This document shows positions 6,304-57,682 of a stretch of 64,000 nt of DNA, piece by piece. Numbering within the stretch: position 1 is the first letter of the stretch; each line of letters opens with the position of its first letter. This stretch comes from Deltaproteobacteria bacterium (GTDB taxonomy: Bacteria > Desulfobacterota > Binatia > UTPRO1): the NCBI GenBank assembly GCA_020848745.1, contig JADLHM010000098.1:207185-271184 (forward strand). The letters run 5' to 3'. Position numbers and translations under genes: made by a program. The notes beneath the pieces are model-generated. The model searched no databases and was not told where the DNA came from. It saw nothing but the letters and a program-made list of their open reading frames with translations.

Positions 6304-9300
6304 TCACGGCGCGACCTCGATCGGCGCGTTCGGGATCTCGCCGAACACGTCGGGCGCGTAGAGCGCCTCGACGCGCGTCGGCGGCAGCGCGAAGCGGCCT
6401 GCCTGGCTCAGCCGCATCGTGTACTCGACGGTGAAGCGTCCCTTCGGCACGAAGTCGTAGTAGGCGCGGAAGCCGTCGAACGCGCGCTCGACGAAGACGG
6501 GGCGCGCTCCCGGGTTTTCCTGCTCGCCGCTCGCGAGCACGGCCGAGTCGCCGCCGAGCCCGGTCCCGAGGTGCGTCGCGCCCGCCGGGATCGGGTCGTC
6601 GACGACGACCCACGTCATGTCGCGCTCGGCGTCGATTTCGAGGCGCACGCGGAGCACGTCGTCGCGGCTGGTCCCGCCGGGCGGGCGCGCCGCGCTCTCG
6701 ACGGGTGTCACGGTCTTCGTGATCCGGTAGCCGGCGGCGATCGGCTGCGTGAGCGGAACCGCGGCGCGCGCCTGGATCGTCGCCCAGGGCCGGCCGCCGC
6801 CGGCGTGCGCGAGGGCGAGCTCGCCCTCGCCTCCGCTCGGCCAGGAGAGCGCGAGGATCGCGCCCGCCGGCGCCGCCGCCCAGTCGAGGGCGCGCTCCGT
6901 GTCGGCGAGCGTGGCGCGGGTCGTGCCGGCGACCGGCGTCGTCTCGAAGGCCGCCGCGAACTTCTCGACCGCGAGCGTGCCCCAGGCGTTGGCGACCGTG
7001 GTCGACCACGCGCCGCGCCGCTGGCGGCCGAGCGCGCCGCGCGCGAGCCGCGGCAGGTCCTCGCGCCATGCGCCGTGCTCGAGGAGCGTCAGCACGAGCC
7101 GGACCGCGTTCACGTCGGCGTCGCTCATCAGCCAGAAGAGGCGGTCGCCGTCCTCGGTCGAGAACGTGAGGCTCGTGCCGGTGACCCGCAGGCGGGCGCG
7201 GAGCTCGTGCTCGACGTCGGCGACGTGCGCCGGATCGGGCTTCTTCGCGATCCGGTGCATCAGGCTCCACCAGTCGATCAAGGCCGAGGTCGGCCAGAGG
7301 CCGGGCTCGACGGTGATCGTGCTCATGAGGGCGGGCTCGACGGCGCCGACCCGCGAGAGCGCCTCGAGCGCCGTGATCTTGCGGAGCGCCAGGTCCGCGG
7401 TCGCGAGCGGCGGCGTGGTCGCCAGGGCGCCGCTCACGAAGCGGCGCAGCCCCTCTTCCATGTCGGCGCGTACGCGCCCGGGGAGCTCGCGACCGGCGGC
7501 GGTCGCGAGCGAGAGCACGTACGCGGTCAGCACCTCGCTGCCTTCCGCGCTCGTCGGGAAGTACTTGAGGAGGCCGTGCGCGTCGGCATACGAGGGCAGG
7601 GCCGTCGCGATCTCGTGCCAGAGGGCGTCGTCGTGGAGCGCGATCGCGCGCGACACGCGCTGCTCGAGGCAGCGATACGGGTAGCGGCGCATGGCGTCGC
7701 GCACGCCGTCGAGCCCGGCGGCGAGGCTCGGCGCGAGCGCCACCCGCACCTCGCCGCGCTCGGGAAGCGCGTCGGCGGGACGCGCGACCGGCTGGCGCGC
7801 GCCGTCCGCGTCGAGCTGGAGGAGCGCCGCCTGGAGCGTCCGCACCGGCACGGCCGGCCGGACCTGTTGCGCGACGCGCACCTCGTCGGCGGGCGCGCCG
7901 GCGGCCGTCGCGGTGACGGTGTACGTCAGCTGCGTGACGTCGGCCGGCGCGGTCATGTCCCAGCCGACGATCGCCGAGGCGTCCGCCGGCAAACGGACCG
8001 TCTGCGGCGCGAGGGACGGCACGGCGCGATCCGCCCGCGAGCCCCCGGCCTCCACCGTGCCCGCCACCGTCAGGTCCGCGGCGTGGCTGGTCGTGTTGCG
8101 CACGGTGAAGGCCGCGCGGAAGCGGTCGCCCTCGCGCACGAGCGGGGCGAGTCCCGGCAGGATCATGACGTCCTGGGTGGCGCGGATCGACGTGCCGCCG
8201 GTGCCGAAGCGGTCGAGGCCGCTCGCGGCGACCGCGACGATGCGGAAGCTCGTGAGCGAGTCGTTGAGCGGCACGTCGACCGTGGCGCGGCCGCGCGCGT
8301 CGAGCGGCACGCGCGCCTTCCAGAGGAGCAGCGTGTCGAAGAGCTCGCGCGTCGCGCTCCGACCGCCGCCGCCGCCGGCCGGCAGCGCCTTCAGCCCGTA
8401 GTGGCGCTTGCCGACGACCTGCATCTGCGCGGTCGCGGTCGTGACGCCGTAGGAACGCCGCCCCATCATGGCGTCGAGGAGCTTCCAGCTCTCGTTCGGC
8501 GCGAGCTCGAGGAGGCCGGCGTCGACCGCCGCGAGCGCGACCTCGCTGCCGGGCGCGAGCGCGGTGCCGTCGGCGGCGCGCACGGCGATCTTCACTTGCG
8601 CGGTCTCGCGCACGCGATGGACCGGATGGTCGGCGGCGACGCGGACCTTCAGCTCGTGCGCTTTCCAGCCGACGGCGAGCTCGGCGATGCCGAGCTTGAA
8701 GGTCGGACGCCCGAGATCGACGAGCGCGGTCGGCTGGACGTCGTCGGCGCGGCCGCGGAGCGCCAGGACCGACACGAAGACGTTCGGCGCCCACTCGGGG
8801 CGGATCGGCACCTCGATCACCGGATCCGTGCCCGCGAGCGCGACCACGCGCGCGTCGGCGACGCCCTCGCGCTCGATCGTGACGAGCGCGGTCGCGGCGC
8901 GAAACGGCATGCGCACCTGGAGGCGCGCCGTCTCGCCGGGCTCGTAGCGGCGCCGCTCCGGCAGCACGTCCATGCGGTCGCTGTCGCTGCCGCCGAACCA
9001 CCAGCGTCCTTCCTTGCCGGCCACCCAGACGTCGTGGTGCGCCGCCGAGCGCCGGCCGGACTCGTCGGTGGTCGACGCCTCCAGCACGACGTTGCCGGTG
9101 ACGCCGGCCGGCCCCTCGCAGTGGAGGAGCCCGTGCGCGTCGGTCGTGCCGCGGCAGACGGTGCCGAGCCGCTTCGTCTCGCGCACGCTGTCGTAGGCGT
9201 AGAAGCCGCCGACGACGCGCGTCCGGTGCGAGAAGAGCTTCCGCGAGAACGCGTCGACCCGGACCGGCGCGCCCGCCACGGGCGCTCCCCGTGGATCGAC

Positions 9301-12102: not shown

Positions 12103-12167
12103 GGCGGCGACATCTTGCACATCGCCTCCGCTCGCGCACGCGGGGTGCTGCGGGACGGGCGCGCGTG

Positions 12168-14300
12168 CTACGGATGCGCCGCCGCGTGGCCCTGGATGGT
12201 CAGGCGGCCCGGACCCGGCAGGCCGACCACGTTGTTGACCGCGGCCGAGCTGGTCGGTCCGACGCAGAAGACCGAGGCGATGGTCGGGGCCGACGCGTCG
12301 CGGACCGGCAGGTCTGCCATGCCGGCGGCGACGAGCGTGTCGGTGCCTTCGTAACCCGAGCCCTGGAAGGTGCCGCCGCCGGTAAGGAAGCAGCGCCGCA
12401 CGGCCGACTCGCAGCTCCCGGCTCCGCCGCCGCAGTCGGCGTCCATCAAGCAAACACGCTGCGCGTGCCCCGACCCGAGCGAGCAGGTCTGATCGATCGG
12501 GCCTTCGGCGCACTTGCCTTGGCCGTCGCCGTTCTCGTCGAGGCAGGTCGCCATACCGTCCGGCGTGTAGTCCTCGATGCAGGAGCTCGGCTTGGTCGGC
12601 TCACCGAGCCGTGAACAGATGCTGGCGGGACAGGCGCTGTTGCCGGCGCACGGCGCGCCGTCGTTGGGGCCCCCGAGACAGCGGCGCCCGCCGCAGACGC
12701 CGGGGTTGCCGCCGCTCGGTGGGCAGTCGGTGTTCGCCGCGCACGGCTCGGCGCCGGCGTTGTTGCAGGTGTCGCAGAGGCACCTGCCGCCGAGTGCGCC
12801 CGAGCAGTTCGGGCTGTCCACCGTGAGCGTCTTCACGACCGTGTCGGTCGCGTTGCTGAGGTCGATCGGGAGGGTGGTGAGGAGCGCGCCGGGGATGGGC
12901 GGGCAGTCGAGGCTCGTGCGCCCGAAGTCGGGACGGCCGGGCACGGTGCCGTTGGCGTCGCACGGCAAGCCGACCCGGGCGCCGCCGTCGCAGGTGCCGC
13001 CGCGCGCGCCGTCGTTGATGCCGCCCGCGTCGGTGCAGCGCGGACAGGGATGGTCGATCGCGATGCCGGCGTAGACGCGCGACGTGAGGAGTGCGGTCGT
13101 GCTGGCCTCGCCGCTCTCGACGTTCACCGTACCGGTTACGGCGCCGGCGAACTGGTGCAGCACGCAGGTTGCGACGCCGCCCGCGGCGAGCGGCTGCGCG
13201 GAGCCGAAGTAGAAGTCGCAGGTGCCCGCCACCGGACACGCGCCCCCGGGACACGCCGAGTCGCCGGCGCACGCGGCGCCGTCGTTGGTCCCGCCGAGGC
13301 AGGTGCGGGCGGCGCAGACGGCGTCCGCCGCGCACGGCTTCGAGGCATCGGTCGTGCAGCGCCGGTTGTCGAGCTGGCCGCTCCCCGCCTGCGGGTTCGG
13401 CACCGGCCCCGAGACGGGGCAGACGCCGCAGGGGCGGCTCGTCGCGGTGCAGGCGAGCTGCATCGTCACGTCGCCGTTGCCGACGACCGGCGCGCGGTGC
13501 GCGATGCCGGTCCAGCCGCGGTCGAGGATCGTCCCCGGCGCGGTCGGGTCGGGCGAGAACACCACCGTCGTCGGGCAGGCGCAGTTGCAGGCGACGCAGC
13601 CGAAATCGGCGCCGCACTGATTCCACAGCGCCGCGGACGCCGACGCGTCGCACGCTTCGCCGGGATCGCTGAAGCCGTTGCCGCAGGTCGCACATTGCGG
13701 GTTGGAGGGATCGAACGCGCAGGTCTGCGCCTCGGCGAACGCCCCGGCCGCGTTCAGGAGGAACGCCGCCTGACCGGGGTGGGTGCAGTCGGTACGCTCC
13801 TCCGCCTTGGCGATGCCGTCGCCGAGCTTGGTGATCGCCTTGCCGAGGCAGGCGGGATCGACGCTGCCGGTCTTGCCGGAGGCCTTCGCGTAGCAGCCCG
13901 TGACGGCGGCGACGTATTTGCCGACGAGCTTCGTCTTCGCGGCGTCGCATTTTTCGGCGTGGCCGACGGCGCCGTCGACCTCCGCCGCGAAGGCCGCCGC
14001 GTCGCTCGCGCGCGTCGCGCCGGAGCCCTCCACGATGCAGGCGAGCTTCGTCTCGATCTTGTCGAGCGCCGGGTCGATCTTGGACATCGCCTTCCCGAGG
14101 CACGTCGCGGCGGCGGGGAGGTCCGTCGACGCCCCCTTCGCGTAGCAGTCCACGAGGGCGGCCGTGCCCTTGCCCACGATCTTGATCTGGCTCGCGAGGC
14201 ATTTGTCGACCGTCAAGGTCGTGAGGGCGGCGGCCGTGCCGGCATGCCCGAGGCATCCGGCCGCGATGCCGGCGACGACGATCGCGCGGGTGACGTCCAT
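12168..14300 (-). CDS. Secreted/lipoprotein-like cysteine-rich protein (GWTGIAH family, Myxococcus-type Cys-rich repeats)
   Basis: ATG at 14298-14300 with GGAGGAGG RBS; MDVTRAIVVAGIAAGC lipobox-like signal; repeated CxGGxNDGxxCxxxxxC modules; paralog of 49798..50928 (shared RGWTGIAH and GLPGPxRL motifs). Confidence 0.7.
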   Translation of the reverse strand: MDVTRAIVVAGIAAGCLGHAGTAAALTTLTVDKCLASQIKIVGKGTAALVDCYAKGASTDLPAAATCLGKAMSKIDPALDKIETKLACIVEGSGATRASDAAAFAAEVDGAVGHAEKCDAAKTKLVGKYVAAVTGCYAKASGKTGSVDPACLGKAITKLGDGIAKAEERTDCTHPGQAAFLLNAAGAFAEAQTCAFDPSNPQCATCGNGFSDPGEACDASASAALWNQCGADFGCVACNCACPTTVVFSPDPTAPGTILDRGWTGIAHRAPVVGNGDVTMQLACTATSRPCGVCPVSGPVPNPQAGSGQLDNRRCTTDASKPCAADAVCAARTCLGGTNDGAACAGDSACPGGACPVAGTCDFYFGSAQPLAAGGVATCVLHQFAGAVTGTVNVESGEASTTALLTSRVYAGIAIDHPCPRCTDAGGINDGARGGTCDGGARVGLPCDANGTVPGRPDFGRTSLDCPPIPGALLTTLPIDLSNATDTVVKTLTVDSPNCSGALGGRCLCDTCNNAGAEPCAANTDCPPSGGNPGVCGGRRCLGGPNDGAPCAGNSACPASICSRLGEPTKPSSCIEDYTPDGMATCLDENGDGQGKCAEGPIDQTCSLGSGHAQRVCLMDADCGGGAGSCESAVRRCFLTGGGTFQGSGYEGTDTLVAAGMADLPVRDASAPTIASVFCVGPTSSAAVNNVVGLPGPGRLTIQGHAAAHP

Positions 14301-33093: not shown

Positions 33094-34776
33094 ATGCGCC
33101 GTCTGCTCCATGCCGTGCTCGCCCTCTGCGCCGTTTCCGTCGTGGGAGCGGGGATCGCCGCCGCGGGCCCGTCGCCCGCGCGCAAGTGCCAGGCGGCCAA
33201 GCTGAAGGCGGCCGGGAAGGCGTGCGAGTGCCGCCACGCCGTCGCCGCGAAGGCGCTCGCGAGCGGCGCCACGCCGGACTTCACGAAGTGCGCCGGCAAG
33301 CTCGCCGACGCCTTCGCCAAGGCGGAGGCCAAGGGCTCGTGTCCAGCGACCGGCGAGGACGCGACGGTCGACGGCCGCCTCGTCGATCTCGTGACCGATC
33401 TCTCGACGTCGTTGCAAGCGAGCGGCGCGACGGGCGACGCCGCGGCGTGCGTCGCCGCGAAGCTCAAGGCGGCGGGCAAGGAGTGCGCCTGCCTCCAGAA
33501 GGTCCAAGCGACGGCGACGCTGAAGGGGATGACGCCGGACTTCTCGACGTGCGACGCGAAGCTCGCCGCGGCGTACGGCAAGGCGGAGACCAAGGGCGCA
33601 GGGGCCTGTCCCACCAGCGGCGACGGCGGCACCGTCGGGGACGACGTGCGCGCGTCGTGCGCGGAGGTCGAGGCCGACGTCGCCGACCGCGACACGTCCA
33701 CGTACTCGCAGCCCGGTCCGTACGGCGTCGGCGTGCGTACGGTCACGCTGATCGACACGTTGCGTGCAACTCCGCCGAACGGGTCGTACGCGGGCGCGCC
33801 CGAGCGGACCCTCGTCACCGAGATCTGGTACCCGGCCGCGCCGAACGGCGTGAACGAGGCCTCGAACGTCGCGATTGCGCCGAACGGCGGCGCCTTCCCG
33901 TTGATCGTCCGCGCCCACGGCTTCTCCGGCTTGCGGCGCGATTCCACCTACATCGTGCGCCAGCTCGCGAGCTGGGGCTACGTCGTCGTGGCGCCCGACT
34001 TCCCGCTCTCGAACCTGAGCGCCCCCGGCGGTCCGACCCTCGCCGACATCGGCAACCAGGCGGGCGACGTGTCGTTCCTCATCGACCACTTCCTCGCCGA
34101 GAACGCCAACGGCACGAGCTTCCTCTTCGAGCGCATCGACGCGTCCCGCATCGGCGCGATCGGTCACTCGCTCGGCGGCGCGACCGTGCTCCTCGCAACG
34201 TACCACGCGACGCTCCGGGATCCGCGCATCGACGCCGCGGTCGCCCTCTCGCCGCTCGGCTGCATGTTCCTCGACGGCTTCTTCGACGCTTCCACCGCGC
34301 CGCTCCTCATCGAAGGCGGCACGGTCGACATGATCACGCGGTACGCGAGCAATCACCTCCAGCCGTATGGCTTCGTGAACGCGCCGAAGTACCTCATGAC
34401 CTTCGACGGCGGCACGCACCTCGGCTTTTCGGATCGCCTCCTCTTCAACCAGAACGAGAACGGCGACGACGCGGTCGGCTGCAGCATCTTCGTGGGGCCG
34501 GGCGACCCGCGGCCGGTCACCTTCGAGGCCAATCTGCCGCCGGACTTCCTCGGCGGCCCGGCCCTCGGCATCGACCCGAGCGGCTCGCTCTGCGAGCCCA
34601 TCTGCCCGCTCCCGCCGCCGAGCTTCATGCTGCACGGCCGTCAGAACGCGCTCGCGAAGGCGGGGTCGGTGGCGTTCTTCGAGGCGAAGCTCCGCGGCAG
34701 CGTGTCGGGCGGGCGGATGATCACGGGCCGGATCGACGCGGACAACGCCGACCTCTCGCTCGCCTACGAGGAGTAG
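33094..34776 (+). CDS. Secreted protein: tandem 4-Cys Lys/Ala-rich N-terminal modules + alpha/beta hydrolase domain
   Basis: ATG 33094 with AGGAGA RBS; signal MRRLLHAVLALCAVSVVGAGIAAA; two copies of KCxAAKLKAAGKxCxC...TPDFxxCxxKLAxAxxKAExKGxxxCP; IGHSLGG nucleophile elbow. Confidence 0.75.
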   Translation: MRRLLHAVLALCAVSVVGAGIAAAGPSPARKCQAAKLKAAGKACECRHAVAAKALASGATPDFTKCAGKLADAFAKAEAKGSCPATGEDATVDGRLVDLVTDLSTSLQASGATGDAAACVAAKLKAAGKECACLQKVQATATLKGMTPDFSTCDAKLAAAYGKAETKGAGACPTSGDGGTVGDDVRASCAEVEADVADRDTSTYSQPGPYGVGVRTVTLIDTLRATPPNGSYAGAPERTLVTEIWYPAAPNGVNEASNVAIAPNGGAFPLIVRAHGFSGLRRDSTYIVRQLASWGYVVVAPDFPLSNLSAPGGPTLADIGNQAGDVSFLIDHFLAENANGTSFLFERIDASRIGAIGHSLGGATVLLATYHATLRDPRIDAAVALSPLGCMFLDGFFDASTAPLLIEGGTVDMITRYASNHLQPYGFVNAPKYLMTFDGGTHLGFSDRLLFNQNENGDDAVGCSIFVGPGDPRPVTFEANLPPDFLGGPALGIDPSGSLCEPICPLPPPSFMLHGRQNALAKAGSVAFFEAKLRGSVSGGRMITGRIDADNADLSLAYEE

Positions 34777-34933
34777 CACCGCGGCGATCGTGCACGGAGC
34801 GTCGGCGCCCCGCGCATTGACACCCAATGAAGGCCGTCGGTATGGTCCCCGCGCTCCGAGGGGGGATCGACACGCACCACGGGCGCCGCTCCAGGCGTCG
34901 CTCCCGCATCACGGGCTCGAAAGGGGTCGTCCG

Positions 34934-36229
34934 ATGTCCAAGGTCACGCCGCTTCGCTTCACCGCCGCACTGACGCTCGCCTGCGGTCTCGCGCTCGGCT
35001 CCCCTCCCGTCGGCCGTGCGGAGGTGCAGCCGGGCGACATGATCACCAAGGAGAACCAGGACAAGATCAAAGGGCTCGTCGCCGACGGCGTGCAGTGGTG
35101 CGTGAACCGCGGGATGGAGATGAAGATCGTCCCGACCAAGAAGATCCCGCTGCCGAAGCTCTATCAGGAGGCCACCGAGAAGTACGCCTCCCAGGTGAAG
35201 CTCAAGGAGGACCAGACGCTCGAGGGGTACGTCGCGGGCCGGCCGTTCCCTCAGGTCGACATGGCCGATCCGAAGGCGGCGACGAAGCTCATGTACAACT
35301 TCGAGCGCACCCACTACTTCACCGACGACCTTGCGCTCCATCTCTTCGACGCCGACACCGGCCAGCTGCAGGTCGATCAGGGCGGCAACCAACGCTACAC
35401 CGTCGAGCGCCACTTCGTGCTCGATTGGCTCCGCGCCCTCCAGTTCACCGGCCGCCTCCACATCGACCCGAAGCCGGAGATCGAACCGAACAAGGACGGT
35501 GCGTTTCGCAAGGCCGGTCTCTATCCCGTGGTCGAGCCGTTCGACCTGAAGGGCATCGGTGGCCTCAACTACCGCTACCTCGACCCGCTCCGGCAGGACG
35601 ACCTCTGGCTCTACCTGCCGAGCCTGCGCCGCGTGCGTCGCCTCTCGAGCGCGCAGCGCTCCGAGGCGCTCTTCGGGCAGGACATCGACGTCGACAGCTA
35701 CGGCGGCTACGCGGGGCAGATCCCGTGGTTCACGTGGAAGCTCCTCACCAAGAAGCCGATGCTCGCGTCGCTCCACGGCGAGAACATGCCGCCGGTGCCG
35801 TGCAAGACCGACGGCGGTATGACCTTCTGCGAGGCCTGGGAGATGCGGCCGGAAGTGCTCGTCGTCGAGGGCACGCCGAAGGCCGACGCGTACGCGTATT
35901 CGAAGCGCGTCATCTACCTCGACCACGAGAGCTTCTTCATCGTCTACACCGACCTCTACGATCGTGGCGGCGAGCTCTGGAAGACGGTCATGCAGAGCAT
36001 CCGCACGTCGAACAGGCCGAATCCGAAGGTCAATTTCGAGTATCCCGAGGAACGCATGTTCATCTACGCGTTCACGGTGGTCGACATGCAGCTCGAGCAC
36101 GGCACGCGCGTCGCGATCCCGGGCATGGCGTTCCAGGACGAGCCCGGCTGGTACGTCGACGTCGGTCCGAAGTACGGCGGCGAGGAGGAGTGGTTCACGA
36201 TCGCCGCGCTCATCAGCGCGGGGCATTGA
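34934..36229 (+). CDS. Secreted hypothetical protein (possibly DUF1329/LolA-like family; tentative)
   Basis: ATG 34934 with AAAGGGG RBS; signal MSKVTPLRFTAALTLACGLALG; non-repetitive composition; family assignment from memory only. Confidence 0.6.
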   Translation: MSKVTPLRFTAALTLACGLALGSPPVGRAEVQPGDMITKENQDKIKGLVADGVQWCVNRGMEMKIVPTKKIPLPKLYQEATEKYASQVKLKEDQTLEGYVAGRPFPQVDMADPKAATKLMYNFERTHYFTDDLALHLFDADTGQLQVDQGGNQRYTVERHFVLDWLRALQFTGRLHIDPKPEIEPNKDGAFRKAGLYPVVEPFDLKGIGGLNYRYLDPLRQDDLWLYLPSLRRVRRLSSAQRSEALFGQDIDVDSYGGYAGQIPWFTWKLLTKKPMLASLHGENMPPVPCKTDGGMTFCEAWEMRPEVLVVEGTPKADAYAYSKRVIYLDHESFFIVYTDLYDRGGELWKTVMQSIRTSNRPNPKVNFEYPEERMFIYAFTVVDMQLEHGTRVAIPGMAFQDEPGWYVDVGPKYGGEEEWFTIAALISAGH

Positions 36230-36718: not shown

Positions 36719-37390
36719 TCAGGCCGCGGCGAGCCGGCCGCCGTCGATCCGGAACACGAGATCGGCCGCCGCCTCCACGAGCGCGGCGTCGTGCGTGACG
36801 ACCACCTGGGTCATCCCGTCGGCGCGGACCCGCGCGAGCACCTCTACGAGCTCGCTCCGCCGCGCCGGGTCGAGCGCACTCGTCGGCTCGTCGTAGAGGA
36901 GGCAGGCGGGCGCCATGGCGAGCGCGCGCGCGATCGCGACCCGTTGGCATTGCCCGCCGGAGAGCCGGGCCGGGTGCTCGTCCACCTTGGCGGCGAGGCC
37001 GAGGCGGTCGAGGATCTCGCGGGCCCCCGCCTCGGCGGCGCTGCGCGCCGCGCCGCGGACGCGCCGCGGCGCGAGCACGCAATTCTCGAGCACGGTGAGG
37101 TGGGGGAAGAGCTCGAAGCTCTGGAAGACGAGGCCGATGTGGCCGCGGAGGGTCGCGGCGGCACTGCGTCCCGCGACGACGACGCGATCGCCGACGGCGA
37201 TCGTGCCGCGCTCGGCGCGGTCGAGTCCGGCGAGACAGCGGAGCAAGGTCGTCTTCCCCGCTCCGCTCTCGCCGACGATCGCCGCGATCGCGCCCGCCGG
37301 CACCGCGAACGACACGTCGCGGAGCGTCGGCGCGGCGGCGCCGCGATGGCGATGGGCGAGGCCTTCGACGCGGAGCGCGGCGCCGTTCAC
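36719..37390 (-). CDS. ABC transporter ATP-binding protein (polar amino acid type)
   Basis: Walker A GESGAGKTT, Q-loop, LSGGQCQRVAIARAL signature, Walker B LLYDEPTSALD; GTG start overlaps upstream stop (GTGA). Confidence 0.8.
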   Translation of the reverse strand: MNGAALRVEGLAHRHRGAAAPTLRDVSFAVPAGAIAAIVGESGAGKTTLLRCLAGLDRAERGTIAVGDRVVVAGRSAAATLRGHIGLVFQSFELFPHLTVLENCVLAPRRVRGAARSAAEAGAREILDRLGLAAKVDEHPARLSGGQCQRVAIARALAMAPACLLYDEPTSALDPARRSELVEVLARVRADGMTQVVVTHDAALVEAAADLVFRIDGGRLAAA

Positions 37391-38982
37391 GCGGCGCTCC
37401 GCAGGTGCCGCCCGAGCCGCGCCTCGGCGCGGCGGGCGAGCCACGCGAACGGCAGGCCGATCGCGAGGTACCAGGCCGCCACCAGGAGGCCGAGGCCGAG
37501 GTGGTCGCGCATCGCGTTCGCGAGGTTCAAGTAGGTCTTGGTGAGCTCGGTGAGCGTCACGAGCGAGACGAGCGAGCTGTCCTTGAGGAGCGCGATGAAG
37601 TCGTTGGTGGCGGGCGGGATCGCGACCCGCACCGCTTGCGGTCCGATCACGAAGCGCAGCGCCTGCATCGTCGACAGGCCGAGCGACCACGAGGCTTCGA
37701 GCTGTCCCGCCGGCACGCTCTCGAGCCCGGCGCGGTAGTTCTCGGCCTCGGCGGCGGCGTAGTTGAGGCCGAGGGCGACGGCGCCCGCGACGAACGGGTC
37801 GAGCGTGACGCCGAGCTCGGGCAGCCCGAAGTACAGCATGATGAGCTGCACGAGAAGCGGCGTCCCGCGCACGAACTCGATGTAGCCGATCGCGAGCGCG
37901 CGGAGCGGCAGCGGCCCGTACTTCCGGCAGAGCGCGAGCCCGATGCCGAGCGGCACGGCGAGCGCCATCGCCGTGAAGGACAACGCCAGCGTGAGCGCGG
38001 CGCCGCGCGCGAAGAGCGCGAGCGTGCGCGGGTAGCGATCGCGCAGGCGCTCGAGGAGGGGCGGGGGCTTCCCGACCGCCGTGCGCCACGCTTCGAGCGC
38101 CTCGGCGACGCCGCGCCCGCCGCCGGCGGGCGCGCCGAGGAGCGCGGCGGTCGCGTCGTTCCAGAGGCCCCACCGCTCGTAGATGGCGCGCAGCCGGCCG
38201 TCGGCGGCGAGGCGCGCGAGCGCGTCGTCGAGCGCGGCGCGCAAGGGCTCCTCGCCGAGCGGCACCGCGACCGCGTAGCGCACCTCGCCGAAGTCGCCCG
38301 GCACCGCTTCGAGCGCGGGCTCGATCTCGCCGTAGTAGAGGCTGATCGGGGCGTCGAGCAGCACCGCGTCGGTGCGGCCGAGGACGAGGTCGGCGTAGAT
38401 CTCGTTCTGGCCGCCGTCGTACGTGCGCACCTCGGCGCCCGCGCGCCGCAGGATGCGCTCGGCGAGCGAGCCGGGCAGCGTGCCGACGAGGCGCCCGCGG
38501 AGCGCGGCCGGCGTGCGCGGCGCGGCGGCGTCGCCGCGGCGGACCGTGAGACGCTCGGGCGCGACGTAGTAGGGGCGGGTGAGGAGCGCGACCCGGAGCT
38601 TCTCGTCGGCGACCTCGATGCCGTTCAGCGCGGCGTCGAAGTCGCCGCGTCCGAGGAGATCGAGCAGCATGTCCCACTGTCCCTGTACCGGCCGCGCGCG
38701 GACGCCGAGCTCGGCCGCGAGCGCGGTCGCGAGGTCGACCTCGAACCCGATCAGGTGGTTCGGGTCCATCGGATCCTGGAACACGTAGGGCGCGCCGCCT
38801 TGCGCGTCGGCGCCCCAGCGCAGCTCGCCGGCGGAGCGGATGCGGCCGAGGGCGCCGGCGGGCTCGTCGTCCTCCTCGGCGCAGGCGACGCGGGCGGCGG
38901 CGACGGGAAGGCACGCCGTCACGACGAGCGCCGCGACGACGACGCGCCATGCCGATCGCCGGGGGCACGCGCCGCGCATCAC
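37387..38982 (-). CDS. Fused periplasmic substrate-binding domain + permease of amino-acid ABC transporter
   Basis: Signal-like N-terminus; SBP_bac_3-like region; C-terminal permease with EAA-like loop (ENYRAGLESVPAGQLEAS); 531 aa. Confidence 0.75.
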   Translation of the reverse strand: MMRGACPRRSAWRVVVAALVVTACLPVAAARVACAEEDDEPAGALGRIRSAGELRWGADAQGGAPYVFQDPMDPNHLIGFEVDLATALAAELGVRARPVQGQWDMLLDLLGRGDFDAALNGIEVADEKLRVALLTRPYYVAPERLTVRRGDAAAPRTPAALRGRLVGTLPGSLAERILRRAGAEVRTYDGGQNEIYADLVLGRTDAVLLDAPISLYYGEIEPALEAVPGDFGEVRYAVAVPLGEEPLRAALDDALARLAADGRLRAIYERWGLWNDATAALLGAPAGGGRGVAEALEAWRTAVGKPPPLLERLRDRYPRTLALFARGAALTLALSFTAMALAVPLGIGLALCRKYGPLPLRALAIGYIEFVRGTPLLVQLIMLYFGLPELGVTLDPFVAGAVALGLNYAAAEAENYRAGLESVPAGQLEASWSLGLSTMQALRFVIGPQAVRVAIPPATNDFIALLKDSSLVSLVTLTELTKTYLNLANAMRDHLGLGLLVAAWYLAIGLPFAWLARRAEARLGRHLRSAA

Positions 38983-40975: not shown

Positions 40976-42841
40976 GTGAAGCAGATCGTTCTGATCAAGC
41001 AGGTCCCGGCCGTCGCGGAGCTCGCCTTCGACCCGCAGACGCGCACGCTGAAGCGCGAGGGCGTGCGTCTGGAAGTGAGCTCGTTCGACGTTCGGGCACT
41101 GCTCCGCGCGGTCGAGCTCCGCGCCGAGCACGGCGGCGAGGTGGTCGTGCTCACCATGGGGCCTCCGGCGGCGCGCGAAGCGCTCGTATACTGCCTTGCG
41201 CTCGGCGCCGATCGCGGCATCCATCTCTGCGACCGTGCGTTCGCCGGCGCCGATACGCTCGCGACGGCGCGCGCGCTCGCGGCGGCAGTGGCGCGCGAGC
41301 GCCCCGACCTCGTGCTGTGCGGGCGTGCGAGCGTCGATGCCGAGACCGCGCAGGTCGGGCCCGAGGTCGCCGAGCTGCTCGACGTGCCGCAAGTGTGCAG
41401 CGCCCGGACGCTCGTCGTCGATGCCGCCGCGCGCACCTTCACCGCGGAGCGCGAGACCGACGACGGTGCGGAGACCGTGACGGGCGCGCTCCCGGCGCTC
41501 GTCACGGCGGGCGAGGATCTGGCGCCGGAGCGCTTTCCGCGCCGGGGGGACAAGGAAGCGGCGAAGGTGAAGCCGATCGTCGAGCTGACGGCGGCCGCTC
41601 TCGGCCTCGACGCGACGACGATCGGCGCCGCCGGCTCGCCGACCTGGGTCGAAGGGCTCGAGGCGATCGACGTCGCGCGCCCGGGTCGCGTCCTCGAGGG
41701 CGGCGTCGATGCGGCGATTGCCACACTGGTTGCCGAGCTCGAGGCGCGCGGGATCTTCGCCCCGGCCGGCATCGGCGACCCGGGCGACGCGGCGCCTGCG
41801 GCGTCCGCTCCGACGGCGGAACGCGCGGGGGCGGTGGCGCGTGATCGCGACGTGTGGGTCGTGGCCGAGCTCTTCGATGGCGCCGTCCGTCGCGTGACGC
41901 TCGAGCTCCTCGCGAGGGCTCGCCGCCTCGCCGCCGCGCGCGGCGGCCGCGTCGCGGCGGTGCTGCTCGGGCACGACGTCGGCCGCCACGTCGCGCTCCT
42001 CGCGGGCCACGGAGCCGATCGCGTGCTCGTCGCCGACGATCCACGCCTTGCGACCTACGCCACCGAGCCCTACGCGGCGCTGCTCGCGCGGGCGATCGGC
42101 GCCGAGCGTCCGGGCGCGGTATTGGTGCCGTCGACCTACGTCGGCCGCGATCTCGCGCCGCGCGTCGCGGGGCGCCTCGGGCTCGGACTCACCGGCGATT
42201 GCGTCGACCTCTCGATCGACGACGAGGGCCGTCTGGTGCAGTGGAAGCCGGCGTTCGGCGGCAACGTCGTCGCGCCGATCCTCTCGCGCACGCGCCCCGA
42301 GATGGCGACGGTCCGTCCGGGCGTGCTGCCGGCGGCGTCGGCGCGCGCGGGCGCGACGGCGCGAGCCGACGCGCTGTCGCTCGTCGATCTCCCGGCGAGC
42401 CGGCTCCGTGTCGTCGACCGCCGGCGCGATCCGTCGGCGGCGCGTGCCGCCGCGCTCGACGAGGCGGAGATCGCGGTTGGCGTCGGGCTCGGCATCGGCG
42501 GTCCCGAGGCGCTCCCGGTGATCGAAGCGCTCGCGGCGGCGCTCGGCGGCGCGCCGCCCGCGGCCACCCGCGACGTCGTCGACAAGGGATGGCTGCCGCG
42601 CCAGCGCCAGGTCGGCCTCACGGGCCGCGCCATCGCGCCGCGCTGCTACTTCGCGATCGGTATCCGCGGCGCCGCCGAGCACATGGTCGGCGTGCGCCGC
42701 TCCGGGACGATCGTCGCCGTCGACAAGAACCCGCAGGCGCCGATCTTCGCGCAGGCGGATCTCGGAATCGTCGGCGATTGGGCCGAGGTCGTGCCGCGCC
42801 TCACGCACGCGCTTGCGGCCCGACGCAAGAGCTCCGAATAG
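40976..42841 (+). CDS. Fused electron transfer flavoprotein beta-alpha (EtfB-EtfA) polypeptide
   Basis: N-terminus MKQIVLIKQVPAVAELAFDP... (ETF beta); C-terminus GIRGAAEHMVGVRRSGTIVAVDKNPQAPIF...ADLGIVGDW (ETF alpha FAD-binding); single 621-aa ORF, GTG start. Confidence 0.8.
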   Translation: MKQIVLIKQVPAVAELAFDPQTRTLKREGVRLEVSSFDVRALLRAVELRAEHGGEVVVLTMGPPAAREALVYCLALGADRGIHLCDRAFAGADTLATARALAAAVARERPDLVLCGRASVDAETAQVGPEVAELLDVPQVCSARTLVVDAAARTFTAERETDDGAETVTGALPALVTAGEDLAPERFPRRGDKEAAKVKPIVELTAAALGLDATTIGAAGSPTWVEGLEAIDVARPGRVLEGGVDAAIATLVAELEARGIFAPAGIGDPGDAAPAASAPTAERAGAVARDRDVWVVAELFDGAVRRVTLELLARARRLAAARGGRVAAVLLGHDVGRHVALLAGHGADRVLVADDPRLATYATEPYAALLARAIGAERPGAVLVPSTYVGRDLAPRVAGRLGLGLTGDCVDLSIDDEGRLVQWKPAFGGNVVAPILSRTRPEMATVRPGVLPAASARAGATARADALSLVDLPASRLRVVDRRRDPSAARAAALDEAEIAVGVGLGIGGPEALPVIEALAAALGGAPPAATRDVVDKGWLPRQRQVGLTGRAIAPRCYFAIGIRGAAEHMVGVRRSGTIVAVDKNPQAPIFAQADLGIVGDWAEVVPRLTHALAARRKSSE

Positions 42842-43562: not shown

Positions 43563-44300
43563 TCACGGTGTTTCGGTTTCCGTCGGTGTCGGTGACGCTT
43601 CGGGCGTCGGGGTTTCGTCCGGGCTTTCGGTCGGCGTCGGGCTGACCGTCTCGACTGCGGTTTCGGTCACGGTCGGCGTTGCGGTCGGAGTGACCGGCGG
43701 CGTGGCAGTGCGCGTCGCCGACGGGGTCACGGTACGCGTCGGTGATGGCGTCGCGGTGCGGGTCGGGGTCACGGTGCGCGTTCGCGTCGGGGTCACGGTG
43801 CGGGTCGGTGTCGGCGTGGCGGTGCGGGTCGGCGTGAGCGTCCGGGTAGGCGTCAGGGTCGGCGTGGGCGTGGCACTTTCCGTCGGGGTGGCCGTGAGCG
43901 TCGGCGTCGCGGTGCGCGTCGGGGTCGCGGTCCGCGTCGGTGTCACGGTGCGCGTCCGGGTCGGCGTCACGGTCCGCGTTGCCGTCAGCGTCGGGGTAGC
44001 AGTGCGGGTCGGCGTGGGGGTGCGGGTTCTGGTCGGCGTGCCGGTGCGAGTGGGCGTCCCGGTCGCGGTCGGTGTTGGCGTGTCGGTCGGCGTTGGCGTT
44101 GGGGTCGCGGTCGGCGTGTCGGTGGCGGTGGGCGTCGGTGTCGGCGTTGGGGTCGGCGTGGGCGTGGGGGTGTCGGTCGCGGTCGCGGTCGGCGTGTCGG
44201 TTGGCGTTGGCGTTGGGGTCGCGGTCGGTGTGTCGGTGGCGGTGGGCGTCGGTGTCGGCGTTGGAGTTGGCGTGTCGGTCGCGGTCGGCGTCGCCGACGT
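43563..44300. repeat. Tandem degenerate short DNA repeats (GTCGGCGTGGGCGTG-type) encoding the Pro-Thr tail
   Basis: Directly visible periodic GGCGTSGSGGTS units over ~740 bp; open in multiple frames. Confidence 0.7.
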
Positions 44301-45419
44301 GATCGGGGTCGTCGGGTACGCCGGCGTCGGACAGGGGAGGCCGCTCGCGTCGGCCTCGATCGTGGCCAGCAGCGAGGGGCTTTGCGGAACGGCCGCTCGC
44401 AGAATGGCGAGACTCGCGCAGGTGTGGCTGCGGACGAGACATTCCGTGTACCCGGACAGCGATTCGACCGCGGTGTCGAATGCGAGGCACTGCGGTGCGA
44501 CGGTCGACAGGTGGGCGCCGCTCGGAGCGAGCAGCGTGGCGAACGGGACGGCACCGCATCTGCGCTCGATGTTTCGCCGGAAGCGGACCGTCGCATCGGC
44601 GAGGTCGGCTCGCCATATGGCGCACCGCCGCGCGCCGCGCTCGAGACACCCGGAACCGCCAGCTTCCCGACGGCAGGCCAGCGCCGCTTCGAGGCAACGC
44701 CGATCTCCGGCCAGTCGGCGCCCGAGGAGGCCGGCGCCTTCGACTCCGACGGCATCGATACACTTCGTGAGCTCGGGAACGGCGGGATCGAACGTGCCGT
44801 CGCCGCCGTAGTCCGCAAGGCAGGCGGCGTCTCCGAGGTCGACGCCGTTCAGACGCAGCAGCTCGCCGGCGCGCGCGTGCTCGAGGACGAGCACGCGGTC
44901 GCTCTCGCACGCATGGCGCCGCGCGATGCATGCCGCGATCGCGCCGTGATCGTCGAGCGTGAGGCCGAAGTCGGCCCAGCAGCCGTCGGCCGCCTGTTGG
45001 TGCCCGAGCCCGCTGGCGTCGAGCATCTCGGTGAGGGAAACCGTCGTCGCGTTGCAGCGCCGAAGGATCCTGCGGGCGAATCGCCGCGTGTCCTCGGCGA
45101 GCGCGGCGCGCGTCGCGACGCACGTGGTTTGTGCGTGATTGCGGCACGCGTCGCCGCCGGGATGGATACGAGCGCACCATGCGACGGCGCGAAGGCATCG
45201 GCCGAGCCGCGTCAACCGCGTCGTGACCGCGCGTGCGCCCGCTCGGGTGATGGCGCGCGCGCAGAGGTCGAGCCGTGCGAGCGCTTCGGCGCGGACCGGT
45301 CGCACGACCGCGCCACTCGCGGCGAACGAGATCAGGAGCGCCAGCGCGATCGTCACACCGCGGCGCGGGGTGAGAAGGGGGACGCGGGGGGACAGCATGG
45401 AAACGAGGGAAGGGAGCAT
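43563..45419 (-). CDS. Secreted protein: N-terminal tandem Cys-rich domains + long Pro-Thr-rich tandem-repeat C-terminal tail
   Basis: Signal peptide (…[24 protein letters not shown]); two copies of a Cys-rich domain ending CIARRHAC / CLVRSHTC; C-terminal ~250 aa of [16 protein letters not shown]… Opposite strand is also open (Gly-Val-rich) so strand assignment rests on signal peptide and domain similarity to 54947..57682. Confidence 0.55.
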
Positions 45420-54946: not shown

Positions 54947-57682
54947 TCAGGGCGTCAGGGCGCCGAGCTCTTGGCCGCGGGGAGTCTGGCCGATCAGCAG
55001 TTGATCGACGCGGCAAGCGTGATGCGCGGCGACGCAGCTCGCGACGCCGGCGATCGAGTCGGCGGGCGTATCGAGCGCGGCGCACTCCGCGCTCCGCGCG
55101 TCGAAGCCGACGCCGTTCGCAGCCGCGAGATCCGCCAGGGCAGGACAGCTCTTCGTGAGCGCGGCGTGCAGCTTCGCCGCGGCCCCGGTGATCTTGACGG
55201 CGAGCTTCGCGCACTTCGCCTCCGCCTTCGCGCGACAGGCGGCATCGTTCCCCTTCGGCTGCACGCACTGGAAGACGCCGTCGGCGCACTTCTGCCCGGC
55301 CTTGAGGCGGGTCGCGCCGTAGGCGGCGGCGGCCTTGGCGAGCGCCTTCTGGCACTTGAGGACGGGTTTTGCGTCGCCGGCCGCGCCGCCGGGGCCGACC
55401 GCCGGGAGGCACGGCGTTTCGAGCGACGCGTCGCGGCCGGTCGCGACGAGGAGCGCGCGCGCGCGCGGGATCTCCGTGCCGACGAGCGCTTCGGCGCGGC
55501 ACGCGTGGTGCGCGACGAGACAGGTCGCGACGCCGTCCGCGTCCGCGAGCGACGCGCCGAAGGCGGCGCAGCGGGCGTCCTCGCTCGCGAATCCGAGCCC
55601 GGCCGCCGCACCGAGGTCGGCGGCCGCGAGCGGCGGATCGCCGCAGCTCTTCGCGACGGCGGCCCGGACCTTGGTGATCGCCGCCTGGCGCGCGCGCTCG
55701 GCCTTGGCGCAGGCGGCGCCCGCTTTCGCGAGACACGCCGGATCGCCGCCGGCCTGCACGCACGCGAATGCCTTCTGGAGGCACGCCGACAGGGCCTTCA
55801 CGCGCTTGGTCGCGAAATCCGTTCCGAGCTTGCCGAGCTTCTTCTGGCACTTGAAAGCCGTCTTCGCGGCGTCGCCGGCGAGCCCGGCGCCCGCGCCGTC
55901 CGCGTACGACGGACAGTCGGGGTCGGTGCGGTCGACGGCGCCGTCGAAGTCGTTGTCGAGGCAGTCGTCGCAGCGATCGGGCGCTTCGGGCGCCGGGGTG
56001 CGGGTCGCGAGTGGCGTCGGCGTACCGGCGGCCGTCGTGGTGGCGCTCGGCGTCGCGCCGCCGCCGGACGTGGCCGTCGGCGTCGGTCCGGGTGCCGGAT
56101 CATCGGTCGCGAAGAGCTCGAGGAGGTCGGCGCTCTCCTGGTCGGCGAGGTAGACGATCGTCTGACCGTCGGGCGTGAAGACCGCGCCGCGGGCGACGTC
56201 GCCGTTCGGGGCGAGATTCGGATGGACCTTCTGGGGACCGCCGCTCGCGAGGCCCGTACTGAAGAGCTCGTTCACGCCGTCGGTGTCCTGGTCGGCGAGG
56301 TAGATGACGGTGACGCCGTCGGGACTGACGGTGAACCCCGCGGGATCGACGTCGCCGCTCGCGGGCATCGGGTTCTTGCTGAGCCTCACGGCCGTGCCGC
56401 CGTTCTCGGGGATGCTGTAGAGCTCGATGACTCCCGCCGCGTCGAGCTCGGCGGCGAAGACGACGCGGGCGCTCGCGGCATCGAACGCGAAGTGGTCCCA
56501 GGCGCCGAGGCCCGCGAGCACGGGTGGCGTGAGCTCCGTGTCGTCGCCCCCCGCGAGGCTCACGGTGAAGAGCCGATACTTGCCGCCGCCGAACGCGCGA
56601 TAGGCGAAGGACTGTCCGTTCGGGCTCATCGCGTAGTCCGAGACGACGACGTTCTGGCCGACGCCGCTCACCGGCTGCTCGCTCGTGCTGCCGTCCACGG
56701 GCACGCGGTAGAGGCGGAAGGCGGGGTAGGTGCCGGCGGTGAAGACGGCGTAGGTTCCATCGGGCGTCAGGCGGAAGTCGGGGAAGTAGATCGCGAGCGG
56801 GCCGGCGAGCTTGGTCGGCGCGGCCTGGGCGATGGGCGTCGCCCAGAGCTCGTATTGCTGCGGATTCATCGCGTTCGGACGCGAGAAGAAGAGGACCGTC
56901 GTGCCGTCCGGCGTGATCGCAGGAGCTTGGGGGCTGTTCTCGCCGGGCAGGACGATCGCGGGCTGGTTCGTGAGCTCGAGCGGCGCCTGTGAGCCGTCGA
57001 TCGGCACGCTGTAGATCTGCCGCCCGCCGCCCATGCCGTCGTCGAACGTGAAGACGACGCGCGCCGCGTCCGGCGAGATGCGATAGCGCGGCAGGAAGGA
57101 GCCCGTCCCCGTCCCGAGCTCGACCGGCGTGCCGCCGGTCGTCGGCACGCTGTAGATCTCGTCCGTCGGCGCCACCTCGAAGACCACCCGCGACGCGTCG
57201 CTCGCCACCCGGAACGTGTCGACGTCGTTCGGCGCCGGCGCGGTGTTGAGCTTGAGCGGCGCGGCGGAGCCGTCGATCGGGACCCGGAAGAGGTCCATGC
57301 GGAATTGCTGGGCGTCCTTGTCGGAGAGGAAGACGACGCCGGCGCCGTCGGGGGTGATGCTCCACGAATCGACCGAGCGCTGCGCTCCCGAGACCGGGAT
57401 GTCGACGAGGGTGGTCGCGCCGCCGCCCGCGACCGGGACCGCAACGAGCCGCAGCACGTAGCCCGATCCCGAGTCGGCGAGGGCGTAGACGGCGGTCTGT
57501 CCGTTCGGCGTGAGCGCGAACGCGTCGATCGCGTAGTCCATCGGCAGGGCGGCGTTGAGCTTGACCGCGGCGGCGTCACCGCCGCCCGCGACGACGAGGG
57601 CGAGCGCGAGGACCAGGCCGGACGCGACGGAGCGCGCGCGGCGGGCAGGGGAATGCGGCGTGGAGCAGGTCGTGGGGAGCAT
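54947..57682 (-). CDS. Large secreted protein: TolB/PD40-like beta-propeller repeats, Pro-Thr linker, tandem Cys-rich C-terminal domains
   Basis: Signal-like N-terminus; many repeated (I/V)(T/S)PDG...VVF blades; linker PAPGPTPTATSGGGATPSATTTAAGTPTP; two Cys-rich domains ending CLVAHHAC / CVAAHHAC. Confidence 0.7.
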   Translation of the reverse strand: MLPTTCSTPHSPARRARSVASGLVLALALVVAGGGDAAAVKLNAALPMDYAIDAFALTPNGQTAVYALADSGSGYVLRLVAVPVAGGGATTLVDIPVSGAQRSVDSWSITPDGAGVVFLSDKDAQQFRMDLFRVPIDGSAAPLKLNTAPAPNDVDTFRVASDASRVVFEVAPTDEIYSVPTTGGTPVELGTGTGSFLPRYRISPDAARVVFTFDDGMGGGRQIYSVPIDGSQAPLELTNQPAIVLPGENSPQAPAITPDGTTVLFFSRPNAMNPQQYELWATPIAQAAPTKLAGPLAIYFPDFRLTPDGTYAVFTAGTYPAFRLYRVPVDGSTSEQPVSGVGQNVVVSDYAMSPNGQSFAYRAFGGGKYRLFTVSLAGGDDTELTPPVLAGLGAWDHFAFDAASARVVFAAELDAAGVIELYSIPENGGTAVRLSKNPMPASGDVDPAGFTVSPDGVTVIYLADQDTDGVNELFSTGLASGGPQKVHPNLAPNGDVARGAVFTPDGQTIVYLADQESADLLELFATDDPAPGPTPTATSGGGATPSATTTAAGTPTPLATRTPAPEAPDRCDDCLDNDFDGAVDRTDPDCPSYADGAGAGLAGDAAKTAFKCQKKLGKLGTDFATKRVKALSACLQKAFACVQAGGDPACLAKAGAACAKAERARQAAITKVRAAVAKSCGDPPLAAADLGAAAGLGFASEDARCAAFGASLADADGVATCLVAHHACRAEALVGTEIPRARALLVATGRDASLETPCLPAVGPGGAAGDAKPVLKCQKALAKAAAAYGATRLKAGQKCADGVFQCVQPKGNDAACRAKAEAKCAKLAVKITGAAAKLHAALTKSCPALADLAAANGVGFDARSAECAALDTPADSIAGVASCVAAHHACRVDQLLIGQTPRGQELGALTP

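Follow-up and report, generated by a model that had tools for sequence, protein, structure and literature searches.

The window examined here, a stretch of 64,000 nucleotides from contig JADLHM010000098.1 of a Deltaproteobacteria bacterium placed in UTPRO1, encodes two proteins that carry a cysteine-rich twin module, referred to here as protein A (911 aa, minus-strand open reading frame (ORF) at 54947..57682) and protein B (618 aa, minus-strand ORF at 43563..45419). The module appears to be an undescribed, obligate tandem pair of approximately 150-residue domains. As a domain family it is new, although accessory modules of secreted proteins, the kind to which it belongs, are familiar. For its function we favour, tentatively and by analogy with anchoring modules of other bacteria, tethering to an anionic polymer of the envelope or matrix, by which the passenger fused to the module would be held at the cell surface. 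A preliminary description of the window had pointed to one recurrent cysteine-rich domain in three proteins, namely A, B and the alpha/beta hydrolase C (33094..34776); the obligate tandem pairing, the acidic loop tied to the C-terminal form of the module and the restriction to Binatota were missed by it.

A twin cysteine-rich module in proteins A and B

Protein A starts with a Sec-type signal peptide, recognized by inspection (aa 1-38, MLPTTCSTPHSPARRARSVASGLVLALALVVAGGGDAA, 57569..57682), followed by a PD40/TolB-like beta-propeller (Pfam PD40, E 1.5e-14; a TolB-type propeller in the NCBIfam scan), a Pro/Thr/Gly-rich linker read from the translation that leads from the propeller to the module (aa 527-568, 55979..56104), an acidic three-cysteine loop with sub-threshold matches to NCBIfam NF033662 (CDDCLDNDFDGAVDRTDPDC, aa 571-590, 55913..55972) and, at the extreme C-terminus, the twin module. 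All of these features lie on the minus strand. As delimited by cysteine framework and alignment, copy 1 (aa 606-760, 55403..55867) holds nine core cysteines and a tail cysteine, C758, and copy 2 (aa 771-911, 54950..55372) holds the nine core cysteines, with the chain ending in ...GALTP just short of the tail-cysteine position. This arrangement is referred to as form I. The region had been given before as 54947-55800, a span that cut approximately 22 residues from copy 1 and missed the acidic loop upstream of it.

In protein B the order is different, with the twin module placed directly behind the signal peptide at the mature N-terminus (form II). Delimited in the same way and again on the minus strand, copy 1 spans aa 47-202 (44814..45281; nine cysteines plus the tail cysteine C200) and copy 2 spans aa 214-365 (44325..44780; nine cysteines plus the tail cysteine C363). 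The remainder of the protein is a Pro-Thr repeat tail of approximately 250 aa (43566..44324, minus strand; 68% proline plus threonine), whose DNA is tandemly repetitive with periods of 18-114, the best being a period of 114 with 93% matches. No further domain follows, and protein B had no Pfam or NCBIfam match.

At a window G+C content of 72.7%, the coding pattern of G+C at third codon positions was seen at the A and B genes only in the two named frames, and the ORFs that overlap these genes in other frames are the usual artefacts of high-GC DNA. By inspection, the N-termini of A, B and C all resemble Sec signal peptides, in agreement with the earlier statement that the three proteins are secreted. 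The Pro-Thr linkers that had been attributed to all three proteins are a property of the module of A and B, and hydrolase C is without one.

The four copies share one framework. From the first cysteine to the ninth, the distances are 22, 7, 9, 8, 22, 25, 16 and 7 in copy 1 of protein A and 22, 7, 10, 8, 22, 21, 16 and 7 in its copy 2; the corresponding values in protein B are 22, 7, 10, 8, 22, 25, 17 and 7, and 22, 7, 9, 8, 22, 23, 16 and 7. The nine cysteines are invariant in the four-way alignment, and pairwise blastp comparisons between the copies gave E values of 1e-7 to 6e-25. A hidden Markov model (HMM) built from the four copies and run against the six-frame translation of the window matched exactly these four places, with none else at E<=10. 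The two tandem domains first reported for protein A, and the same architecture reported twice for protein B, are thereby borne out as homologous, and the spacing of the cysteines held once they were properly aligned, both here and across the family.

Membership of the family was defined by two tandem copies with the framework C-x21-C-x6-C-x9-C-x7-C-x21-C-x22-24-C-x16-C-x6-C, together with G-L-G and P-R motifs. The copies of A and B scored 180-213 bits each against the seed HMM (202 and 213 bits for the two copies of protein B against the HMM of the four window copies) and belong to the family on this definition. Protein B is a divergent member, at most 34% identical to any other, with P-R replaced in both copies. 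It is also an outlier in having arginine at every lysine position, from which it follows that charge, and not residue identity, is what is kept. The length of approximately 120 aa given previously applies to the core from C1 to C9 (approximately 117 aa), and the conserved unit including its tail is approximately 150 aa. Likewise, the end motif described then is present, but family-wide it reads C-x2-R-x-H-x-C, with histidine at only 77% and arginine at 62%, and the P-R that follows is better conserved, at 98-99%.

Size, pairing and conservation of the family

An exhaustive profile search with the four-copy profile over 1.84 billion representative proteins returned 714 proteins at E<=1e-3, 502 at E<=1e-10 and 258 at E<=1e-30. 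In a word-index search, a single copy retrieved two fragments only, and a 59-sequence alignment retrieved 13 matches without useful names. The sole word-index matches (P0001 and P0002, at loci L001 and L002) are themselves broken genes, and on the ENA contigs that encode them many other genes are fragmented as well, for example a citrate synthase in three parts; the contigs seem to stem from a close relative whose assembly was error-prone.

Exactly two copies were present in 151 of the 152 proteins examined, separated by a gap of 8-22 aa that was mostly 13-18 aa. The same was observed at 44 independent genome loci, where 38 of 41 genes had two copies, no gene had three or more, and the remaining three look like incomplete gene calls. 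Additionally, the nearest neighbour of a copy 1 was the copy 1 of another protein in 57 of 59 cases, and that of a copy 2 was another copy 2 in all 61. This pattern indicates that the duplication is older than the radiation of the family and that the pair is the functional unit.

The complete module measures approximately 320 aa and contains 20-22 cysteines. Over 144 pairs, conservation in the cysteine columns is 96-100%; also conserved are G-L-G, H-x-C (its histidine at the 77% given above) and, after the last core cysteine, P-R-A-x-E-L-L, in which P and R reach 97-100%. Eleven positions of the hairpins carry lysine or arginine at a combined frequency of 61-89%, and a copy has a median net charge of +4 to +5. 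Aromatic residues are nearly absent from the module (W 0.1%, Y 0.7%, F 2.4%), which argues against a classical carbohydrate-stacking site.

The preliminary description could not assign the domain to a named family, and none was found here either. No Pfam or NCBIfam family covered the pair in A or B, in 118 members scanned against Pfam, or in eight isolated pairs at E<=1; the twin module had no sequence match in the PDB; and Foldseek searches of the PDB returned generic helical bundles only, with TM-scores below 0.45 and best E values of 2.1 (single domain) and 0.08 (tandem). A description of the twin module was also not found in the literature on cysteine-rich domains of Binatota or Binatia.

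Predicted fold and disulfide arrangement

Models made with AlphaFold2 were all helical, both for the single domain (protein A copy 1; predicted local distance difference test score, pLDDT, 80.9) and for the tandem (pLDDT 81.6; predicted template modelling score, pTM, 0.84), and the latter model supports a tandem that packs as one compact body. The long predicted helices are H2-38 and H43-74 in the single model and H42-82 and H87-119 in the tandem model. About the turn between two such helices the first six cysteines are symmetric, with distances of 22 and 7 on one side, 9-10 across the turn, and 8 and 22 on the other. In copy 1, a tenth cysteine lies 29-30 residues past C9, and ten cysteines were counted over copy 1 and the linker in 142 of 152 proteins. 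In the rare members that lack cysteines, these are missing two at a time: five sequences are without both C9 and C10 of copy 1, and three are without both C7 and C8 of copy 2. Paired loss and symmetric spacing together point to structural disulfides, five per copy. Of these, C1-C6, C2-C5 and C3-C4 would staple the long hairpin, and C7-C8 and C9-C10 would lie in a smaller helical portion behind it. Structure prediction had been proposed earlier as a check on the disulfide framework; it yielded an all-helical fold, and the pairing given here was deduced from the sequence rather than from model coordinates.

With so many cysteines, and with a histidine two residues before C9, the module might instead be thought to bind metal or haem or to act in redox chemistry through the cysteines and the H-x-C motif. 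We give this reading hardly any credence. CxxCH was found in none of the 144 pairs and nowhere in proteins A, B and C, so the twin module is not a cytochrome, and the sole CxxC of the three proteins lies in the acidic loop of protein A. Moreover, the histidine is merely 77% conserved, the paired losses and symmetric spacing point to structural bonds as described, and no cytochrome or thioredoxin-type match was obtained.

The two forms differ in where the last cysteine is found. Form I, as in protein A, has the acidic three-cysteine loop before copy 1 and a chain end of the type ...GxxTLP just short of the place of the tenth cysteine; form II, as in protein B, has no upstream cysteine and a tenth cysteine after copy 2. 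The third loop cysteine was present and the copy-2 tail cysteine absent in 64 pairs, the reverse was the case in 76, both were absent in four, and no pair had both. This mutual exclusivity suggests that the clasp cysteine may come from one chain end or the other, with the third loop cysteine of form I standing in for the tail cysteine as the partner of C9 of copy 2. The segment that follows the loop, C-P-x-x-A-D-G-x-G-x-G-L...K-C-Q, is similar to the linker between the copies after C10. Altogether, these observations are consistent with a closed, pseudo-two-fold arrangement, possibly a pseudo-symmetric ring, in which the end of copy 2 would adjoin the start of copy 1. Such an exchange of the clasp cysteine between chain ends would be a natural example of one domain body adapting to N- or C-terminal fusion.

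The acidic loop stands ahead of the twin module in approximately 44% of family members and follows the pattern C-x2-C-x-D-x-D-x-D-G-x-x-D-R-x-D-x-D-C, which resembles calcium-binding D-x-D-x-D-G loops. It matched the "acidic double-disulfide repeat" of NCBIfam NF033662 in seven of eight members, with a best E of 3.6e-6. The matches of the protein A loop were weak, at 15.6 and 18 bits in two scans, below the cut-off of 41 (E from 0.0018). NF033662 describes repeated four-cysteine acidic units, whereas the loop here is a single three-cysteine unit, and the match is limited to these 20 aa and does not extend to the twin module.

A calcium-loop-like acidic motif (similar to DxDxDGxxDxxD) next to an obligate duplicated unit at a protein end also brings to mind type I dockerins (PF00404), which are duplicated units at a protein terminus with calcium-binding D-x-D-x-D-G loops and many enzyme partners. 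By such a dockerin-cohesin-like docking, the module would attach diverse secreted proteins to one scaffold or surface-layer protein shared by all. The large number of paralogues per genome and a weak Cohesin match in one member would fit, although we regard the idea as improbable. A dockerin is approximately 70 aa long, has no cysteine framework and needs a cohesin, whereas the twin module has a single acidic loop that form II lacks altogether. The pair itself gave no Pfam dockerin or cohesin signal, and no linked or recurrent partner gene was found near the 44 genome loci.

Position and passengers of the module

In 96 of 152 proteins the pair occupies the extreme C-terminus, behind a stretch rich in Pro, Thr, Ser and Gly. 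A sizeable minority of proteins have it near the mature N-terminus instead, 10-15 residues behind a classic Sec signal, with first a Pro/Thr linker and then the passenger downstream. The passengers belong to extracellular domain types that are unrelated to one another and include right-handed beta-helix; DUF5122, SBBP, PD40 and BNR propellers; FG-GAP; thermolysin M4, M64, M11 and subtilase S8 peptidases; GH64 glucanase; and Big_2, PKD, Laminin_G_3, CBM96, PA14 and lectin domains.

Two proteins of approximately 2,400 aa outside the window (P0115 and P0144) consist of a signal peptide, the twin module and then teneurin-like TTR, NHL and YD-shell/RHS domains. This makeup suggests bacterial proteins of the teneurin-like or polymorphic-toxin type in which the module forms the N-terminal element. 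Wall-associated Rhs toxins of the WapA type from Bacillus subtilis also comprise a signal peptide, a surface-binding N-terminal region and then an Rhs/YD shell. The likeness to P0115 and P0144 is one of architecture only, the wall-binding repeats of WapA being unrelated in sequence.

Four pairs of approximately 340 aa had seemed to stand alone (P0006, P0012, P0035 and P0072). These sequences begin within a Pro/Thr linker or the acidic loop, have no signal and come from contigs of approximately 1.5 kb, and they are truncated gene calls; the use of P0006 and P0072 as proof that the third loop cysteine alone suffices was withdrawn accordingly.

A single terminal element on a diverse exoproteome of one lineage, with similar passengers, is also what the C-terminal domain of the type IX secretion system (T9SS) provides. 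By this comparison, the module would be an export or sorting domain for a dedicated secretion machine, perhaps removed after transport. The great diversity of the secreted passengers, the extreme C-terminal position in 96 of 152 proteins and passengers that accompany T9SS cargo elsewhere (e.g., GBD_T9SS_assoc) are in its favour. We nevertheless judge it to be very improbable. T9SS and other sorting domains are strictly C-terminal and are either beta-sandwiches of approximately 80 aa or short transmembrane tags, whereas the twin module is helical, is far larger at approximately 320 aa with approximately ten disulfides and, in the minority described above, directly follows the Sec signal with its passenger downstream. 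Neither Por_Secre_tail-type nor other sorting families were among the Pfam matches listed (the best 25 of 26 and the best 25 of 39 families), and no machine gene was linked to the loci.

Taxonomic range and genome context

A genome scan with one acidic-loop peptide pattern found the 44 loci referred to above, 42 with matches to the full pair and two with the acidic loop only. The metagenome-assembled genomes (MAGs) at these loci are labelled Candidatus Binatia, "Polyangiaceae bacterium UTPRO1", Deltaproteobacteria, "uncultured delta proteobacterium" and, in one case, Thermodesulfobacteriota. The order UTPRO1 belongs to Binatota, a phylum whose genomes were formerly filed as Deltaproteobacteria, Myxococcota or Desulfobacterota (PMC8262859). 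Every named genome with the module is a Binatota MAG. The module had been described as lineage-specific, extracellular and disulfide-rich, and its restriction to Binatota among named genomes, the Sec signals and the strict cysteine framework agree with all three terms. No match to the twin module was found in plasmid or phage collections.

The closest locus, on JADYZW010000003.1, is 77% identical, and protein A has an orthologue in UTPRO1 that is annotated "hypothetical protein" (OQY68485.1); protein A itself was absent from the contig index used for the scan. Individual genomes hold several paralogues. With a single search pattern, at least eight genes were counted in MFD00822.bin.1.245 and at least six loci in SOY_34.

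A proposed role in surface tethering

The tethering that we favour would proceed as follows. The module and its passenger would be exported by the Sec pathway. In each copy the helical hairpins would be stapled by disulfides, and the two copies would pack into one body, closed by a clasp cysteine from either end. Placed at one end of unrelated passengers, either mature N-terminal or extreme C-terminal, and in most cases set apart from them by a Pro/Thr-rich spacer, the module would bind an anionic component of the envelope or matrix of its producer (lipopolysaccharide, capsule or exopolysaccharide) through the Lys/Arg-rich faces of the hairpins, and would thus keep the passenger on the producer's surface.

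Several properties speak for such a role when taken together. Export, disulfide stapling, a broad range of passengers joined by flexible spacers, many paralogues, use at either terminus and a fixed tandem correspond to what is typical of non-covalent surface anchors, SLH domains among them. SLH domains are helical, form one pseudo-symmetric body from a fixed tandem, occur N- or C-terminally on unrelated secreted proteins and tether these non-covalently to an anionic envelope polymer; the same spectrum of partners is seen for surface-anchoring modules of other phyla. The twin module resembles SLH (PF00395) in its terminal position, its obligate tandem and its partner spectrum. The two differ in that SLH consists of three repeats of approximately 55 aa without disulfides, and the twin module of two copies of approximately 150 aa with approximately ten disulfides; no PF00395 match was found in A, B, the scanned members or the isolated pairs. 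Protein B, with only a Pro-Thr tail behind its pair, makes sense if the pair is an anchor, the simplest reading of this protein being a Pro-Thr filament held by its anchor. Additionally, the conserved cationic hairpins and the near-lack of aromatic residues would favour a surface-tethering, polyanion-binding role, and the conserved cationic face would likewise agree with the term "binding module" used in the preliminary description.

A binding surface of this kind could also be directed outward. The module would then target a foreign surface or substrate: bound to the envelope of other cells or to some external polymer, it would deliver hydrolases, proteases or YD-shell toxins there, much as carbohydrate-binding modules or the receptor-binding regions of bacteriocins do. 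Lytic or attacking passengers such as the GH64 beta-1,3-glucanase, the M4 and S8 peptidases and the teneurin-like YD-shell/RHS proteins are what would be expected, and the helices, cationic and stapled by nested disulfides, are reminiscent of membrane-active saposin-like proteins. The latter (SAPLIP) are helical and often cationic, with nested 1-6, 2-5 and 3-4 disulfides, as proposed here for the first hairpin of the twin module. However, saposins are domains of approximately 80 aa with four or five helices, from which both the spacing of the twin module (x21, x6, x9, x7, x21) and its size of approximately 150 aa differ. Neither saposins nor carbohydrate-binding modules were among the Foldseek PDB matches, aromatic residues are scarce, unlike in classical carbohydrate-binding modules, and many passengers are non-catalytic (propellers, Ig-like and lectin domains), with protein B having no passenger at all. 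Delivery to foreign surfaces is considered unlikely, if well worth keeping in view.

A number of observations weigh against the account preferred here, in which an obligate, Binatota-restricted pair tethers its passengers to the producer. In what they say about the target, the data fit tethering and foreign-surface binding alike, and the two cannot be told apart by them. Both the disulfide map and the cationic surface were reasoned out from the sequence, and the net charge ranges from -16 to +16 among family members. No conserved neighbour gene, such as one for a receptor or a processing enzyme, was found across the 44 loci, which share only the local synteny of orthologous loci. The count of two copies in 151 of 152 proteins derives from a top-150 list that favours two-copy proteins, since these score higher. 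Finally, the use of one acidic-loop pattern biased the genome scan towards form I, so that the taxonomic range is a lower bound.

A broader version of tethering would be a surface-display system throughout the phylum, in which the clasped twin helical module serves, N- or C-terminally, as the universal anchor of much of the exoproteome (proteases, glycosidases, adhesin-like propellers and YD-shell toxins) to an anionic envelope polymer. In this far-reaching form we consider the proposal speculative and rather unlikely. Binatota are widespread in soils and sediments, and to our knowledge they have never been cultured and nothing is known of their cell surface. One phylum-restricted module on hundreds of secreted proteins thus offers a sequence handle on the Binatota exoproteome. 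It may also represent a new principle of anchoring or targeting, it has a compact, disulfide-stapled, all-helical predicted fold that has no solved relative, and if tethering is true it could serve as a display tag. At present its members are all annotated as hypothetical proteins, and a curated family entry is deserved.

A different repeat in hydrolase C

Hydrolase C is an alpha/beta hydrolase with PETase- and PAF-AH-like Pfam matches. Its N-terminus carries two copies of a helical repeat with four or five cysteines (33169..33693, plus strand; aa 26-112 and 113-200), which are 42% identical to each other. The repeat is approximately 85 aa long, with the motifs KC.AAKLKAAGK and F.KAEAKG.CP and the framework C-x11-C-x-C-x19-C-x16/18-C. 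According to the preliminary description, these were shortened, four-cysteine versions of the domain in A and B, so that a single family would run through all three proteins. What can be said for a common family is that the two repeat types share the start K-C-Q-x-x-x-x-K-A-[AG]-x-K, which falls in a predicted helix, and that each is found in secreted Binatota proteins.

The comparisons gave little room for it. The HMM of the four A and B copies did not detect the hydrolase C repeats even at E<=10. Using hhalign, the four-copy alignment matched them with 0.07% probability, and an alignment of 299 A/B-type copies matched 14 C-type repeats from homologues with 0.2% probability and only over the first 15 residues ("KC..K.G.K"), so that just 4-15 residues were aligned in these runs. 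The two types are also unlike in cysteine framework and length. On the strength of the differing framework and the failed HMM and profile-profile matches, the hydrolase C repeat is a separate small family of four-cysteine helical repeats, unrelated to the twin module; descent of both from one family is extremely unlikely, and the shortened versions claimed for hydrolase C were not upheld. The C-type repeat had no Pfam, NCBIfam or PDB match, and few relatives were found, including a Candidatus Binatia protein and a DUF1566 (PF07603) protein.

A DUF1329/LolA-like gene (34790..36229, plus strand) starts 14 bases past the stop of hydrolase C on the same strand and may form an operon with it.

Other genes in the window

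Three further genes were noted. A bacterial alpha-2-macroglobulin-like gene of 2,069 aa on the minus strand (6304..12513) encodes the domains bMG3, MG2, A2M_BRD, A2M and bMG10. At 37387..38982, also on the minus strand, an ORF of 531 aa fuses a family-3 solute-binding protein domain to an ABC-transporter permease domain. On the plus strand, a single ORF of 621 aa (40976..42841) combines two ETF-domain stretches with an ETF_alpha FAD-binding domain, which could mean a beta-alpha fusion of an electron-transfer flavoprotein but also a missed stop or frame change.

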